Below are positions 3,562 through 21,900 of a stretch of DNA of 64,000 nt, piece by piece. Numbering within the stretch: the first letter of the stretch is position 1; the number at the start of each line of letters is the position of its first letter. The stretch comes from a phage. The position numbers were made by a program, and so were the translations under genes. The notes under the pieces were generated by a model that saw nothing but the letters and a program-made list of their open reading frames with translations, was not told the origin of the DNA and ran no database searches. The stretch lies in the sequence record PZ027503.1, one strand, 5' to 3'.

Positions 3562-4170
3562 ATGCAGATAGTATGTGATTGGGATTTAGTTGTGGCTCCG
3601 TTAGATGTTGCTTGGTTAGAATGGTTGAATAAGATTAGTGGCCTTGGTGTTAAAATCGACACATTCACAAAAAATGCAGATTACGATCTTACCAACTATT
3701 TTCCTGGTTTCAGGGAAGAGTTCAACATAGATCCTTACGGATTTCTGGATAATCCTCATCTCTACGATACAATGGGTTTTGTTCCAGGTATGCCAGATTT
3801 CTTAAAGTATGTTTCAAGGAAAGGTGGCAATCTTTTGATCGCAAGTGTGACAAAAGGTGGTCACTTAAGTTCTAAACATAAACATGTTTTAAGAACATTG
3901 GACACGATTGATTTTAGCAAAGGATCTGGTAACGGCTTTTTTGCTACAAAAGAAAAATATTTATTGCCTTGTGATATAGCCATAGATGACAGGGCTGATA
4001 ACCTACTATATTTTCCAGATGAAGTGGTTAAAATATATTTTAATACGCCTTATAAAGATAACCATCTAGAAGAACTAAAGAAAAAACCAAATGTTGTGAT
4101 CACAGGTTTAGAAGATCAGTGGCTAACATGTTTGGATGTTTTTAACACTTTGAACAATTTTAAAAACTAA
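3562..4170 (+). CDS. HAD-superfamily phosphatase (possible 5'(3')-deoxyribonucleotidase)
   Basis: N-terminal CDWDLV (DxDxV-like), later IASVT, K, and IDDRADN motifs in HAD order; GAGGAGG RBS. Confidence 0.4.
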   Translation: MQIVCDWDLVVAPLDVAWLEWLNKISGLGVKIDTFTKNADYDLTNYFPGFREEFNIDPYGFLDNPHLYDTMGFVPGMPDFLKYVSRKGGNLLIASVTKGGHLSSKHKHVLRTLDTIDFSKGSGNGFFATKEKYLLPCDIAIDDRADNLLYFPDEVVKIYFNTPYKDNHLEELKKKPNVVITGLEDQWLTCLDVFNTLNNFKN

Positions 4171-4179
4171 GGAGAAAAA

Positions 4180-5178
4180 ATGACAAAACAGATTTCGGCT
4201 AGTATTATTGCACATTCCATCACTGAAGACGGAAAAGAGATTGTAACTTTCGAACTTGAATATCCACGTATTATTCATTCAGAACTGATGACTCACCGCC
4301 TGTTCAGTCGTAATGCTGCTTCTAGCCGTGCTATACCTGTTAAAACACTGATCGAAATGGTTCGAAATCAGCCTGCTCGTCCTTATCGTTTTGGGGCTAA
4401 CCAACCTGGTATGCAGGACAAAGGTGTTGATCATGACGCTCTTATTGATGCAGGTTATACTGCTCAAGAGTGGTGGGATCTTGCCGCGCTTAGTGCAGCA
4501 CGTTTTGCAGAAGAATTCTCTTTGGCAGGGTACCACAAACAAGTTGCAAACCGTCTTCTGGAACCTTTCCAACGAATTAAAACAGTTCTGACAGCAACAG
4601 AATATGAAAATTTCTGGTGGCTACGTGATGACAAAGAAGCCGATCCTACTATCGAAGCTTTGGCTAAAGAGATGCACAAAGAGTATGAAGAATCTACACC
4701 AGAAGTGCTGAAACCAGGGCAATGGCACACACCTTATGTAGACCATTTCTATGATACTATTGGCACAGAAGGTGACGATCATTTTGTTTTTGGTGGATAC
4801 TACGTTCAAGATGAATCTGGAGAAGTCGTTGTGCTTACTTTGGAAGAAGCCAAAGCTATTTCAGCTTCGTGTTGTGCACAGGTTAGCTATCGTCGTTTGA
4901 ATGCAACTAAAGATAAAGCTTTAGATATCTATGGTCGTTTGCTGACTGGGCGCAAGGTTCATGCTTCTCCGTTTGAACATCAAGCCACTCCAATGCAAGA
5001 AACATACGAACAATATGGAGAGAACTGTTTTGAAGATTTGTTTATCAATGCTCCTTGGGATTTTAACTCTTGGGAACCAGGTATTACCCATGTAGATCGT
5101 AATGGTAAGTTTTGGTCTGGCAATTTCAAAGGCTGGATTCAACATCGTCAACTTTTAACAAATCATACTAAATGGTGA
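4180..5178 (+). CDS. thyX: flavin-dependent thymidylate synthase (ThyX family)
   Basis: THRLFSRNAASSRA matches the ThyX RHR...S...S.R signature; AAGGAGAAAAA RBS. Confidence 0.7.
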   Translation: MTKQISASIIAHSITEDGKEIVTFELEYPRIIHSELMTHRLFSRNAASSRAIPVKTLIEMVRNQPARPYRFGANQPGMQDKGVDHDALIDAGYTAQEWWDLAALSAARFAEEFSLAGYHKQVANRLLEPFQRIKTVLTATEYENFWWLRDDKEADPTIEALAKEMHKEYEESTPEVLKPGQWHTPYVDHFYDTIGTEGDDHFVFGGYYVQDESGEVVVLTLEEAKAISASCCAQVSYRRLNATKDKALDIYGRLLTGRKVHASPFEHQATPMQETYEQYGENCFEDLFINAPWDFNSWEPGITHVDRNGKFWSGNFKGWIQHRQLLTNHTKW

Positions 5179-17841: not shown

Positions 17842-18149
17842 TGTATAAGATTACAATTATTCAAAGTGTAGGTAATATCCGTAAAGAAGTTATCTTAGAA
17901 ACAGAAGATGTTAATCTTGTTCGTGAGATTGTTCTTAAGGAAGATAACCTGCAAGCTGTAGAATCAGATGCACCGAATCTTATGGTGGATCAAGAATATT
18001 CTGAACTTCGTCGTATTTTTGAAGAGATTCAGAAGAAAGAAACACAACCGACCATAAAACCTTTTGGTCCTTATGATCCGAGCAATCCTAGCAGTCCTTG
18101 GATCATGAGAAATACGGAACCGTATACACCTTTTGAAATTACTTGTTGA
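17841..18149 (+). CDS. hypothetical protein
   Basis: ORF in track; ATGA-type overlap. Confidence 0.45.
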   Translation: MYKITIIQSVGNIRKEVILETEDVNLVREIVLKEDNLQAVESDAPNLMVDQEYSELRRIFEEIQKKETQPTIKPFGPYDPSNPSSPWIMRNTEPYTPFEITC

Positions 18150-18156
18150 GGTGATT

Positions 18157-18738
18157 ATGGCAGAACTGTTCTATACGGGAGTTGGAAGTAGAGACATATC
18201 CGAAGAAGAGTGGGCTTTGATGGTAGGCATAGGGAAATGGCTTTCAAACCTTGGGTTTAAATTAAGGTCTGGGAAGGCAGAGGGTAGTGATTCTGCTTTT
18301 GAAACAGGTGTCCAAGAGTCTGAAAATCCTACTAACAAGGAGATTTATGTTCCTTGGGAAAATTTCAAAGGTAATCAGATTCCAGGGGATGTTATTGTTC
18401 TTGCAAAACCAGATACAATGAACTATGCTATCTCTGTGCAATGGATCAAAGATGTTCACCCAGCCTATGAAAAGCTTAAGCAGGGTGCTAGAAAATTGCA
18501 CCAACGTAATGTGCATCAAGTGTTAGGTAGAGATTTGGAGAATCCTGCTCCATCATGTTTCTTGTTGGCTTGTGCTAATACTGATAAACATGGAGATGCA
18601 AAAGGTGGAACAGCTACGGCTTGGAAGATAGCTAAAGCCAATAATGTTCCTTGTTTAAACATTCGTGGGAAAACAAAACAAGAGATTTACGATTTTCTAC
18701 GACCTTTGGTAATGAGGGCAATAACAAGTGATTCCTAA
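18157..18738 (+). CDS. SLOG-superfamily (DprA/LOG-like) Rossmann-fold protein
   Basis: YTGVGSR...RSGKAEGSDSAFETG...KGGTATAWKIA resembles DprA/LOG glycine-rich motifs; start at ATG 18157 after GAGGTGA. Confidence 0.4.
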   Translation: MAELFYTGVGSRDISEEEWALMVGIGKWLSNLGFKLRSGKAEGSDSAFETGVQESENPTNKEIYVPWENFKGNQIPGDVIVLAKPDTMNYAISVQWIKDVHPAYEKLKQGARKLHQRNVHQVLGRDLENPAPSCFLLACANTDKHGDAKGGTATAWKIAKANNVPCLNIRGKTKQEIYDFLRPLVMRAITSDS

Positions 18739-19240
18739 ACGTAAACGTGGTGAACAAAGAACAAACTTGGCAGAAATCTTAGATTACAACATGGTTAATG
18801 ATGTGACAAAAGAAATTCTGCCTGTTGTAGAAGATATTCTTCAAAGAGGGTTACGATTCTGCTCGGATCGGGTGCATTTCATGTGGACACATAAAAGTGA
18901 CTCCGCTTTGAATTTCTATCCTTTGGATTATACTCTGAACAATACAGAGATGAAAGATATCAACAAATACTTAATGGGATATAAAGATATAACCGAAACC
19001 GTTCTTGGAGAATTGGCAGAAATCTTGGCTAACGATATTCTTAGAAATATTAATAAGGCTCTTGACAGAAGCCCAGCAGGAGTAGTAGTATCTTTTGCTG
19101 TGCCAGATATGGTTAAATATGAGTCTACAATACCTAATAAAGCTTATGCCTTTCTTCGGAGAGACGTTCGTGGAAATGTGTTGGAGATGGAGTCAAACTA
19201 CAAGATTGAGGAGGTTTTATGGCAGAGTTCGGATCAGTAA
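18728..19240 (+). CDS. hypothetical protein
   Basis: ORF in track. Confidence 0.45.
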   Translation: MIPKRKRGEQRTNLAEILDYNMVNDVTKEILPVVEDILQRGLRFCSDRVHFMWTHKSDSALNFYPLDYTLNNTEMKDINKYLMGYKDITETVLGELAEILANDILRNINKALDRSPAGVVVSFAVPDMVKYESTIPNKAYAFLRRDVRGNVLEMESNYKIEEVLWQSSDQ

Positions 19241-19509
19241 CAAGTTTTGAAAGTAACTTCGTTACCGCTTGGGAAGCTTGGGATGAAATGGGTGTTGGGG
19301 AACTTTATTTTTACAATGTAACACTACGTCCAGAGTATGCTTACCTGGTACCAGAAGGAACAGTTCAAATTGGCATGTATCTGTCTTCTCAAGATGGTGT
19401 TGTTCAATTTGAGTTTTATTCAAACACAACGGACAACGAATTTACATATCGTGCATTTCATGTCAACATGTCTTTAGGAGAGGAGAAATTTTATGACGAC
19501 CAAGTTTAA
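19219..19509 (+). CDS. hypothetical protein
   Basis: ORF in track. Confidence 0.45.
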   Translation: MAEFGSVTSFESNFVTAWEAWDEMGVGELYFYNVTLRPEYAYLVPEGTVQIGMYLSSQDGVVQFEFYSNTTDNEFTYRAFHVNMSLGEEKFYDDQV

Positions 19510-19690
19510 AACAGTAGAAGAAGCCGTAAAAGCAGCTTATGAGGCTTTAGCGGAAGCAGAGCAGTTAGCAGATGAGACTGGTAAAGGTTTCCGTTTCTCC
19601 CCTGAATATGGGATGGGTGGCTATTATGATCCAGAAGATGAAAATGAGAATACTGGAACAAATTGGCATCCATCTTCTTTAAGTTGTTAA
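19493..19690 (+). CDS. small acidic protein ending in NWHPSSLSC
   Basis: ORF in track; GGAGAGGAG RBS; C-terminal W-x-SS-x-SC shared with next two small genes. Confidence 0.5.
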   Translation: MTTKFKTVEEAVKAAYEALAEAEQLADETGKGFRFSPEYGMGGYYDPEDENENTGTNWHPSSLSC

Positions 19691-19701
19691 TAGGAGGTAA
19701 A

Positions 19702-19971
19702 GTGGGAATCGAAGATATCAAAGGTTATAAACCGCATACCGATGACAAAATTGGTAAAGTGAATGCTATTAAAGATGCTGAAGTTCGATTAGGATTAATC
19801 TTTGATGCTCTAATGTCTGAATTGTGGGCTGAACTGGATGATTGTGAAGATTTGGAAGAGTCTACCAATATATCCACCCGCCTTGACCAAATTTCAATAG
19901 CAAAGACTAAGTTGAAAGAAGCTTCTATGTGGGCCTGTCGTTCCGTTTTCCAACCAGAGGAGAAATACTAA
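19702..19971 (+). CDS. hypothetical protein
   Basis: ORF in track trimmed to GTG 19702 after TAGGAGG. Confidence 0.4.
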   Translation: MGIEDIKGYKPHTDDKIGKVNAIKDAEVRLGLIFDALMSELWAELDDCEDLEESTNISTRLDQISIAKTKLKEASMWACRSVFQPEEKY

Positions 19972-20189
19972 TGAGTGATCGTAATGTTGAAGAATTAACT
20001 GAAAAAGCCCAAGCTATTATGGCTTTAGTGGACGAACTTACAAAAGAAGCTGAAGATGCTGGTTTTGGTCTTAGTTTAGAAAATGACGCAATCTGTTTTG
20101 AAGATTGGCAATCCTCTTCTTGTTATGGTGAAGGTGATGATGGTTTCGTCGTTAATTCTCAAGGCGTTTGGCACAGTAGTAGCTGTTAA
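19971..20189 (+). CDS. small acidic protein with internal WQSSSC and C-terminal VWHSSSC
   Basis: ATG 19971 after GAGGAGAAA; paralogous N-terminal helix with 19493 gene. Confidence 0.5.
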   Translation: MSDRNVEELTEKAQAIMALVDELTKEAEDAGFGLSLENDAICFEDWQSSSCYGEGDDGFVVNSQGVWHSSSC

Positions 20190-20198
20190 GGAGAGATT

Positions 20199-20471
20199 GT
20201 GGAGTCTGAAGGCGAACTGCTGATAAAAAAGAAAGTTAAAGAGATGGAACAAGCACAAAGAAAGTTTCGTAAGGAGATTGAAGAACTTTGTGAACAGTTT
20301 CAGGAACAAGCTTGGATAGGTGACTACGGTAACGGAGAAACTTATTACCCTACAGGAACGCCAGCCGCAGATCACTATATTGATTTCATTTGTGAAGATT
20401 ATGGTGTAGAGTTGGATGAAAATGGTTTAACCACAAGAGGTGTTTGGATCTCTTCTTCCTCAATGTGTTAG
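20199..20471 (+). CDS. small acidic protein ending in VWISSSSMC
   Basis: GTG start after AAGGAGAG; same C-terminal motif class. Confidence 0.5.
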   Translation: MESEGELLIKKKVKEMEQAQRKFRKEIEELCEQFQEQAWIGDYGNGETYYPTGTPAADHYIDFICEDYGVELDENGLTTRGVWISSSSMC

Positions 20472-20480
20472 TAAATAATA

Positions 20481-20502
20481 ACCCGCTTCGGCGGGTTTTT
20501 TA
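20481..20502 (+). terminator. intrinsic terminator
   Basis: ACCCGC-ttcg-GCGGGT hairpin followed by TTTTTT. Confidence 0.6.
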
Positions 20503-20531
20503 TTGACAGGAATCTGGAAGCTTGATAAACT
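20503..20531 (+). promoter_or_regulatory. sigma70-like promoter
   Basis: TTGACA, 17-bp spacer, TAAACT. Confidence 0.45.
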
Positions 20532-20561
20532 TAACCTATCAACCAATAGAGGAGAAATATT

Positions 20562-21503
20562 ATGGTGTTAATTGGTAGCCGTGCATTACAAATTCATGCT
20601 ATGGACATGGGAAAAGACTTGTATCGCCCTTGTGTAGATTTAGATTACCTGTGTACAGAACAAGAGTGGGAAGAATTATCAAAAATGTTCTCTCAAGATG
20701 AGTTTGTTGAACTTGTAGAACGTAAAGGAAACAAAGGCCATGTCAAAATGATAGCTGGTGCACATTTGGAATACGATATTGCTTCTCAAGGAGATAGCAC
20801 AGAAGCTTTGATTAGTTATTGTGAAGATTCTGATGATGTTCGTCGAACTTACGCTGGACATGTTGTTGCTCCTTTAGATGTGCTCTACCTTCTTAAAATG
20901 AGTCATCGTTTTAAAAAAGATAGTCCTCACTTCTTTAAAACTATGAAAGATATTCATTTCATGCGGTCACTGGGCGCAAAGATCCCAGAAAATCTTAAGA
21001 GTATTTATGAGTTGCGTGAGAAAGAAACATACACTTACTCTCATCCGAACTTAAACGTAAAAAGTAAAGACTTTTTTAAAGGTGATGAGGTTCCGTATGT
21101 TTATGATCATGATTCTATCCATGAAGCAATCGCGGTAATGGATGCTCCGGCATATAAATCTTATATGAAAGATGGAAGTGAAGTTATGACCAGCAAAGAA
21201 AAGTTTTTTGCTCAACCAAAACATGTGCGCCTGTTAGGTGTTTATGAAGAAGCGTGTGTTTTGGCTTTGGAACGTTCACAAATTCCTTTCGGTGGAGAGA
21301 TCGGAGGTCCAACCCCTAAGCAAAGTTTTATAATGGCTTTATCTAAAGTCTGCACATCCATCACTAGTGGTTGGTTTAGGGAATATGCTTGGGAAAACTT
21401 TTATGTTGTTATTAAACTATATGAAAACATGGGCGAAAACGACTATGTTGAACGTTTTAAAGCTAATCAACATGTAGTAAAGCCTTTTGAAGGAGGTTAT
21501 TAA
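20562..21503 (+). CDS. hypothetical protein (possible nucleotidyltransferase-like fold, weak)
   Basis: 313 aa; N-terminal IGSRA...VDLDYL loosely resembles GS...DxD of Pol-beta-type NTases but spacing atypical. Confidence 0.5.
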   Translation: MVLIGSRALQIHAMDMGKDLYRPCVDLDYLCTEQEWEELSKMFSQDEFVELVERKGNKGHVKMIAGAHLEYDIASQGDSTEALISYCEDSDDVRRTYAGHVVAPLDVLYLLKMSHRFKKDSPHFFKTMKDIHFMRSLGAKIPENLKSIYELREKETYTYSHPNLNVKSKDFFKGDEVPYVYDHDSIHEAIAVMDAPAYKSYMKDGSEVMTSKEKFFAQPKHVRLLGVYEEACVLALERSQIPFGGEIGGPTPKQSFIMALSKVCTSITSGWFREYAWENFYVVIKLYENMGENDYVERFKANQHVVKPFEGGY

Positions 21504-21504
21504 T

Positions 21505-21900
21505 ATGTGTGGATATCTTTCAGAAAGTTATTTCAAAGTGACGCATGAGGATTTAGAAAAAGCACGATTGAAACTGACAGCTATTATTGAATACTCTAAT
21601 ACTGTTGATCACAGATTAAAGACTACTAAAGTATCTGTTCCTTGTTGGTTAGGTTTACGGCATAAAATAATGTCTCAACATGACCATGTTGTTCGAGAGA
21701 TGCATGGTTGGTGTTGGTTTCACGATGTGGCTCTGCATTTTGGTTATATTACAGAAGAAGAGCATAGATTCTGTGAACTAACATATCGTATTCCAACCCT
21801 TCACGATTTAGATTTGTGGAAGAAAGCAAACGAGATTTTTCTTACAGAAAGTGATTGGCGTAAAGTTATGGCTTGTCTTGAATGGAGGGGTAATGAGTAA
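21505..21900 (+). CDS. hypothetical protein
   Basis: ORF trimmed to ATG 21505 after GAAGGAGG. Confidence 0.5.
   Translation: MCGYLSESYFKVTHEDLEKARLKLTAIIEYSNTVDHRLKTTKVSVPCWLGLRHKIMSQHDHVVREMHGWCWFHDVALHFGYITEEEHRFCELTYRIPTLHDLDLWKKANEIFLTESDWRKVMACLEWRGNE

Follow-up and report, generated by a model that had tools for sequence, protein, structure and literature searches.

Three small acidic proteins of a phAPEC8-like coliphage (genus Phapecoctavirus) terminate in a tail that consists of a tryptophan, paired serines and a final cysteine, and they very probably form a functional two-component module with a nucleotidyltransferase (NTase) that resembles the MenT toxins in its fold. Their genes are located in a 64,000-nucleotide stretch of phage DNA (sequence record PZ027503.1; referred to here as the window) and correspond to gp188, gp190 and gp191 of phage phAPEC8, while the NTase gene that follows them corresponds to gp192 (Table 1). 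In the account that we favour, and to which we would assign somewhat less than an even chance, the small proteins are paralogous partners of the NTase, and a composite site built from the tail and a conserved loop meets the catalytic cleft of the enzyme, most likely as an acceptor.

A family of small phage proteins with a nearly invariant C-terminus

The three open reading frames (ORFs) had been singled out in an original prediction made from the DNA alone; their coordinates and C-termini (NWHPSSLSC in gp188, VWHSSSC in gp190 and VWISSSSMC in gp191) are as given there, and the second copy of the motif that it had seen inside the middle protein, WQSSSC, is indeed present at residues 46-51, directly followed by YGEG. 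Each ORF is preceded by a good Shine-Dalgarno sequence (GGAGAGGAG for gp188, GAGGAG for gp190 and AAGGAG for gp191). The encoded proteins, 'hypothetical' throughout in the phAPEC8 annotation, are all acidic, with isoelectric points (pI) between 4.05 and 4.40 (4.31 for gp188) and net charges from -8 to -13. Among the 1071 stop-to-stop segments of at least 30 amino acids in the six frames of the window, the terminal motif is found only at the ends of these three ORFs. The codons used for the tail serines vary from copy to copy (TCT TCT; AGT AGT AGC; TCT TCT TCC TCA), and this difference in codon family points to selection at the level of the protein and not to a DNA repeat. A look-alike tail occurs in a nearby ORF (positions 18728-19240, plus strand; 170 amino acids; PHROG 8569), whose product ends in ...EEVLWQSSDQ; this protein is not a family member, as it lacks the terminal cysteine and is not matched by the hidden Markov model (HMM) of the family.

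Pairwise BLASTP comparisons among the three proteins are weak (E values of 0.013 and 0.12, and one pair without a match). The profile of PHROG 899 matches each of them (gp188, E 1.2e-12; gp190, E 1.4e-5; gp191, E 5.1e-14), with all three alignments falling at profile positions of about 148-221, and the family HMM likewise recognizes all three (gp188 with an E value of 1.6e-22). The three proteins are thus true paralogues within this phage family.

Word-indexed and exhaustive profile searches of 1.84 billion representative proteins yielded a family of 39 representative clusters (50% identity) or 248 proteins (90% identity), defined by the tail in its long form or in its short form, W-x-x-S-S-C, together with a YGxG element; all three window proteins fit this definition. 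Nearly all members are 65-120 amino acids in length, and a functional name has been attached to none of them. The C-terminus reads W(-8)-x-[S/A/P](-6)-S(-5)-S(-4)-x-x-C(-1) in 144 of 149 small homologues, in which the tryptophan, the two serines and the terminal cysteine are invariant; the five exceptions are mostly truncated proteins or carry one extra residue. In distant members, S-A replaces S-S or the spacing is shorter, and the tryptophan and the terminal cysteine are retained. Outside the tail, the bodies of the small proteins share only 20-30% identity. Also conserved are a YGxG.TYYP loop and, more loosely, a motif in the N-terminal helix, EAE.IADE.G..F, which is the family-wide form of an N-terminal pattern already noticed in two of the window proteins. 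The contention that the Trp-Ser-Ser-Ser-Cys tail is unusual and conserved, which its proposer had made dependent on the presence of the motif in homologues from related phages, is strongly upheld by these figures.

Some database entries at the edges of the family call for caution. The exhaustive search also retrieved four long surface proteins (P0023, P0029, P0031, P0034) whose resemblance to the family comes from repeat domains; they lack the tail and were set aside. A 97-amino-acid family member of phage ESCO10 (GenBank OM386655, positions 3941-4234; our locus L002) is labelled 'inhibitor of prohead protease', a label that we reject since product names and genes are out of step in this record; neighbouring small ORFs of the same record are misleadingly named 'helicase', 'baseplate hub' and the like.

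Three subtypes can be distinguished, each represented by one of the window proteins: subtype A ('YGMGG'), subtype B ('DYGxGxTYYP') and subtype C, the double-motif proteins. They occur together in at least 18 loci from T4-like and phAPEC8-like phages, which indicates that the paralogues are old and non-redundant. Subtype C comprises 26 members with both copies of the motif, T4-like phages included; in these proteins, YG follows the internal W-x-x-S-S-C without a gap, and the tail has its short form, in which the two residues before the cysteine are missing, as in gp190. ORF129 of phage WG01 (...EDWLNSSCYGEE...IWYPSSC) is an example. The fusion of the internal motif to YG suggests a single site to which both the tail and the YGxG loop contribute.

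Linkage of the small genes to a nucleotidyltransferase gene

In the window, the last of the small genes stops at position 20471 and the NTase gene starts at position 20562 on the same strand, a neighbourhood that the original prediction had not covered. When 80 loci from IMG/VR were anchored on the NTase and the strict terminal motif was required, 72 of them contained at least one same-strand ORF with this motif, and 182 of the 183 such ORFs were positioned upstream of the NTase gene; one further motif-bearing ORF was found on the opposite strand. Of the 93 loci obtained by pooling these with 13 others, 86 contained family copies once HMM matches were added, each having between one and eight; of 257 copies in total, 252 are located upstream of the NTase gene and 247 end in cysteine. 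The nearest copy lies at a median distance of 303 bp from the NTase start; among the 85 loci that have a copy upstream, this distance is 150 bp or less in 37.

The linkage is also seen from the opposite direction. In seven individual look-ups of loci anchored on divergent small proteins, an NTase gene was present 0-2 kb downstream and on the same strand in every case, including a 378-kb jumbo-phage contig and the Myxococcus phage Mx1. Phage WG01 (T4-like; Dhakavirus) possesses four tandem family members (ending in WISSSAMC, WVSSSSEC, WFTSSMSC and, in the double-motif protein, WLNSSC...WYPSSC), followed by the NTase gene. All-against-all clustering of the ORFs from 89 loci left the small-protein and NTase families as the only ones common across lineages, with a single NTase gene per array.

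A scan of one genome per species across 185,579 bacterial and archaeal species detected the NTase on only five contigs, all from metagenome-assembled genomes (MAGs), and tail-motif genes were situated immediately upstream of it in all five, which makes the module, in essence, specific to phages. On the same grounds, an origin as a bacterial toxin-antitoxin or defence system is not supported, given that all five contigs have the phage-type arrangement.

One of the roles originally envisaged for the tail, that of a recognition element for a modifying enzyme, gains real circumstantial support from an NTase gene that is almost always directly downstream, with the reservation that an inhibitor or an adaptor would fit the same data.

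The partner enzyme

The NTase family numbers at least 2209 members in the protein database. Phage records with the enzyme number 735, and those with a gp191-type small protein 416. Mean column identity in the family is an unusually high 48%; G5, S6, D26, D28, E70, K112 and about 50 further positions are invariant. The signature of the Pol-beta superfamily, hG[GS]...D-x-[DE] with a third carboxylate on the core alpha/beta fold, is present. In structural comparisons, the MenT1 toxin ranked first (11.9), followed by TglT/MenT3 (10.4), ANT(2'') (9.7), the Megavirus polyadenylate synthase (9.5), MenT4 (9.1) and LnuA (9.1). By sequence, the NTase has no match to DUF1814/AbiEii (PF08843), to RlaP (PF10127) or to any solved protein. 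Because the GS...DxD motif and the third carboxylate are kept and the fold matches that of MenT and ANT enzymes, the NTase is probably active.

The RNA-ligase-associated RlaP proteins (PF10127) are stand-alone Pol-beta NTases of large phages and are thought to act in RNA repair (PMC7824862, PMC12776372). The enzyme studied here is likewise a phage-encoded, stand-alone Pol-beta NTase of large phages, but its conserved neighbour is a tail-motif protein and not an RNA ligase; the lack of a PF10127 match (PMC12776372) led us to reject its identification as RlaP.

The median pI in the NTase family is 5.6, and such net acidity is more in keeping with a protein or a small molecule as the acceptor than with a general RNA-binding enzyme. 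Residues 262-273 (K-V-C-T-S-I-T-S-G-W-F-R) form an invariant, Ser/Thr-rich segment with an invariant cysteine (C264), located in the C-terminal region of the enzyme, for which there is no counterpart in the MenT structures. This segment could be a contact for the terminal cysteine of the partner.

Predicted structure of the small proteins

An AlphaFold2 model of gp191, built on an alignment of 123 sequences, is confident (predicted local distance difference test, pLDDT, 94.2) and shows a helix at residues 4-34 and a small sheet. A Foldseek search of the model against BFVD retrieved only uncharacterised family members (among them RB69ORF139c of RB69 and proteins of Aeromonas phage 31 and Yersinia phage TG1). 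A sequence search of the Protein Data Bank (PDB) with the 123-sequence profile gave coiled-coil noise only, the best match being a designed helical protein (E 0.024), and scans of the three proteins against Pfam, NCBIfam and PADLOC returned nothing significant. The small proteins have no similarity, in sequence or fold, to the antitoxin MenA1, and none to any solved protein sequence.

Several other identities were discarded. A C-terminal activation of the ubiquitin or ThiS-MoaD type does not suit a terminus that is Cys and not Gly-Gly, nor was a beta-grasp match obtained. None of the three proteins matches PF24729, which speaks against an identity as Acb2/Tad1 sponges. Two further functions of the tail that had originally been proposed fared poorly: a metal or cofactor site has little in its favour, with one invariant Cys and no invariant His, Asp or Glu, and nothing that we found supports a targeting tag.

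Acceptor, inhibitor, adaptor or precursor

A fixed tail on diverged bodies is what one would expect of numerous paralogues that all have to fit the same conserved site on a partner, and we infer a physical interaction of the small proteins with the NTase; that it is the tail which engages the enzyme has, in our estimation, slightly better than an even chance. In the mechanism that we propose, the small protein, a long N-terminal helix predicted to pack on a small beta-sheet, would present a composite site formed by the YGxG/TYYP loop and the extreme C-terminus, W-x-[S/A/P]-S-S-(x-x)-Cys-COOH, to the catalytic cleft of the NTase. A conserved hydroxyl would then be loaded by the enzyme with a nucleotidyl or nucleotide-derived group; the candidates are Ser -5, Ser -4 and a Tyr of the YGxG/TYYP loop. 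The small proteins would be substrates or carriers, and their variable bodies might provide each paralogue with a different downstream role in infection.

That the tail or the loop is a covalent acceptor is a tentative proposition, held with more doubt than belief. It is favoured by the retention of one position-fixed motif in otherwise diverged paralogues, a pattern typical of substrates of one conserved enzyme, by the net acidity of the NTase family, and by analogy. Pol-beta-type enzymes are known to modify hydroxyls of proteins (GlnD modifies PII, GlnE glutamine synthetase, and MntA HepT), and CitX and MdcG join a nucleotide-derived prosthetic group through a phosphodiester to a Ser of the small acidic carriers CitD and MdcC. 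Covalent loading of the Ser-Ser...Cys C-terminus by a MenT-fold NTase, be it with a nucleoside monophosphate, with a nucleotide-derived prosthetic group, or as an activation of Ser that leads to its elimination and to a ring closed by the terminal Cys, would represent a new phage protein-modification system, a possibility that we judge to be rather unlikely.

A number of observations weigh against the acceptor scheme. It does not account for the requirement for the terminal cysteine. In the gp191 model, the terminal motif is predicted as a strand (residues 82-85) and a helical turn (residues 86-89; pLDDT about 87); the tail would thus be folded onto the domain of the monomer and would not be a free peptide, so that its invariance could be partly structural. 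The genetic linkage is not perfect either: other genes intervene between the small genes and the NTase gene in many loci, and seven of the 93 NTase loci (L013, L014, L015, L023, L061, L077, L078) have no clear family member within 4 kb. In these seven, the partners may lie elsewhere or be lost; locus L077 contains a degenerate 72-amino-acid candidate that ends in ...EEWYSSSEAWTPSGCSY. In the window itself, a terminator-like element and a promoter-like site part the small genes from the NTase gene, and this succession of a strong hairpin with a T-run and a promoter-like site suggests that the NTase may be transcribed apart from the small genes in this phage. Finally, the closest solved relatives of the NTase, MenT1, MenT3 and MenT4, act on tRNA, and MenT1 is blocked by a 68-amino-acid helical protein encoded just upstream, which is an inhibitor and not a substrate (PMC10435456).

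These last findings lead to the main rival explanation, which we consider unlikely, namely that the NTase modifies tRNA in the manner of the MenT enzymes, either to shut off host translation or to repair tRNA ends, and that the small proteins are MenA1-like stoichiometric inhibitors or pseudo-substrates, whose tail and helix plug the active site and thereby set when the NTase acts. The fold of the enzyme and the order of the genes suit such an antitoxin-like role, but the small proteins share no sequence similarity with MenA1 or with solved proteins, and the NTase has no match to PF08843/DUF1814. Moreover, an antitoxin would not typically come as one to eight diverged paralogues retained together beside a single enzyme; antitoxin interfaces usually co-vary and do not stay invariant; and net acidity, as found in the NTase, is not typical of tRNA-binding toxins. 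A module that is nearly absent from bacteria, with its five MAG contigs, is also ill-suited to an addiction-type toxin-antitoxin system.

The small proteins might instead be adaptors or specificity subunits, with the tail docking each paralogue in the same NTase pocket and the variable bodies directing the enzyme to different targets. An invariant tail on variable bodies, the joint retention of subtypes A, B and C in T4-like and phAPEC8-like phages, and one enzyme gene per array would all be in keeping with such a function. We nevertheless regard it as improbable: no target is known, the bodies are tiny and consist mostly of the conserved helix and sheet, and docking alone leaves the need for the terminal Cys and the Ser-Ser pair unexplained.

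The proteins might also be precursors akin to ribosomally synthesized and post-translationally modified peptides (RiPPs). Here, a Ser would be activated by the NTase and eliminated to dehydroalanine, to which the terminal Cys would be added (in the manner of lanthionine or aminovinyl-cysteine, AviCys), or the tail would become a peptide-derived cofactor. Ser residues that accompany a Cys at the very end, and a motif whose position is fixed from the C-terminus, would be compatible with this chemistry, and tandem arrays of diverged precursors upstream of a single enzyme are typical of RiPP loci. Even so, we hold this explanation to be very improbable. No conserved dehydratase, cyclase, LanD-type flavoprotein, radical S-adenosylmethionine enzyme, protease or exporter is encoded nearby, and with the NTase and the small-protein family as the sole common elements of the 89 clustered loci, a lanthipeptide or AviCys-type precursor was rejected. 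The proteins are, according to the model, confidently folded domains and not leader-core peptides, the distance from Ser to Cys is not the same in the long tail as in the short one, and we know of no Pol-beta-fold NTase that takes part in such chemistry.

Genomic surroundings

The region from position 18000 to 21600 is 99.6% identical to phAPEC8_ev052 and 99.1% identical to phAPEC8. Records OP562383 ('Acinetobacter phage vB_AbaM_ABPW7') and MG065650 ('Campylobacter phage B15') are also about 99% identical over this 3.6-kb query, and their host labels look doubtful. The surrounding phAPEC8 annotations include a NinI-like phosphatase, PhoH, an HslV-like peptidase, methyltransferases and Sir2, and a gene for a DprA-like recombination-mediator protein is located just upstream of the block; these surroundings look like an early or accessory region. 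No tRNA genes were found in the window.

Between the first and second of the small genes sits a gene, likewise outside the scope of the original prediction, whose product is a close homologue of Acb2 (Vs.4 of T4), a sponge that sequesters cyclic oligonucleotides and counteracts the cyclic-oligonucleotide-based antiphage signalling system (CBASS). It is present in only one of the 89 module loci; with the other 88 lacking it, Acb2 was rejected as a part of the module and the gene is a lineage-specific insertion.

Table 1. Positions of the small genes, the NTase gene and neighbouring features in the window
Feature	Position	Strand	Description
DprA-like recombination-mediator gene	18133-18738	+	PHROG 768, E 2.3e-62
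gp188 (paralogue 1)	19493..19690	+	65 aa, ATG start; subtype A
gp188 tail	19664-19687		WHPSSLSC
Acb2 (T4 Vs.4) homologue	19702-19971	+	89 aa; PDB 7UQ2, E 1.6e-42; PF24729, E 1.9e-19
gp190 (paralogue 2)	19971..20189	+	72 aa, ATG start; subtype C
gp190 internal motif	20106-20123		WQSSSC
gp190 tail	20169-20186		WHSSSC (short form)
gp191 (paralogue 3)	20199..20471	+	90 aa, GTG start; subtype B
gp191 tail	20445-20468		WISSSSMC
Terminator-like hairpin and T-run	20480..20497	+	AACCCGCTTCGGCGGGTT TTTTT; closes the small-gene block; terminator also annotated in phAPEC8
Sigma-70-like promoter	20503..20531	+	TTGACA-17-TAAACT with upstream TG, before the NTase gene; consensus match only
gp192 (NTase)	20562..21503	+	313 aa, Pol-beta fold, DUF7277 and DUF7275
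NTase catalytic-type residues G5, S6	20574-20579		
NTase catalytic-type residues D26, D28	20637-20645		
NTase catalytic-type residue E70	20769		

The setting next to an anti-CBASS gene in an early, accessory region is the kind of place in which the small proteins might act as independent effectors on host or defence components, through a W/S/S/C and YGxG site that serves as a ligand or metal site, a sponge or an enzyme inhibitor; their linkage to the NTase would then mean that the two are regulated together or belong to one pathway, with no direct contact between them. The apparent transcriptional separation of the NTase gene in the window, as judged from sequence signals, and the predicted position of the tail within a compact fold would agree with this. 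We consider such an independence fairly improbable, in view of the rarity of Acb2 among the module loci, a residue pattern that offers a metal only the invariant Cys, and the lack of any PADLOC, Pfam or NCBIfam match. Furthermore, phages with no other genes in common still have the small genes linked to the NTase gene, and it is difficult to see why this should be so if the two were functionally unconnected.

Relation to known systems and significance

Among the known systems, the architecture of the module is closest to that of MenAT1, the MenA1-MenT1 toxin-antitoxin pair of Mycobacterium tuberculosis (PMC10435456; PDB 8an4). There is, however, no sequence similarity on either side, and the phage NTase has a large, highly conserved extra C-terminal region. 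MenAT1 contains a single small gene where the phage module has one to eight paralogous ones, MenA1 lacks both the invariant W-x-x-S-S-x-x-C terminus and the beta-sheet domain, and the module resides in large virulent phages, not in bacterial chromosomes. Likewise, the gene of an NTase-fold enzyme adjoins that of its partner in MntA-HepT (a type VII toxin-antitoxin system), GlnD-PII, CitX-CitD and MdcG-MdcC; a hydroxyl of the partner is modified in these systems, while such a modification is hypothetical here. CitD and MdcC resemble the phage proteins in being small and acidic, and they receive their nucleotide-derived group on a Ser. No homology of the phage module to any of these four systems was detected; it gives no Pfam matches to them, and the acceptor motifs differ.

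The 'uncharacterized proteins' of T4-like phages of the PHROG 899 or RB69ORF139c type belong to the same family as the small proteins, and their catalogue entry names no function. Searches of the literature on PHROG 899, on DUF7275/DUF7277, on a C-terminal Cys in connection with a phage NTase, and on phage MenT/AbiEii gave no account of the module, the terminal motif or the linkage. Both families have already been catalogued (PHROG 899; PF23940/PF23942) without an assigned function, and the two-gene module has apparently not been studied.

The module is widely conserved and occurs in model and therapeutic phages, among them RB69, JS98-like and phAPEC8-like coliphages as well as Acinetobacter, Aeromonas, Pseudomonas and jumbo phages, and its signature, the C-terminal Trp...Ser-Ser...Cys, is unusually sharp. 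Should the small proteins be inhibitors, virulent phages would carry a regulated MenT-type enzyme, a finding that would bear on tRNA-centred conflicts between phages and their hosts. If the tail is a nucleotidyl acceptor, as in the reading that we favour, phage infection would involve a post-translational modification of a new kind, and covalent loading of the tail would make the small proteins a new class of carrier or effector proteins in T4-like, phAPEC8-like, jumbo and Myxococcus phages.

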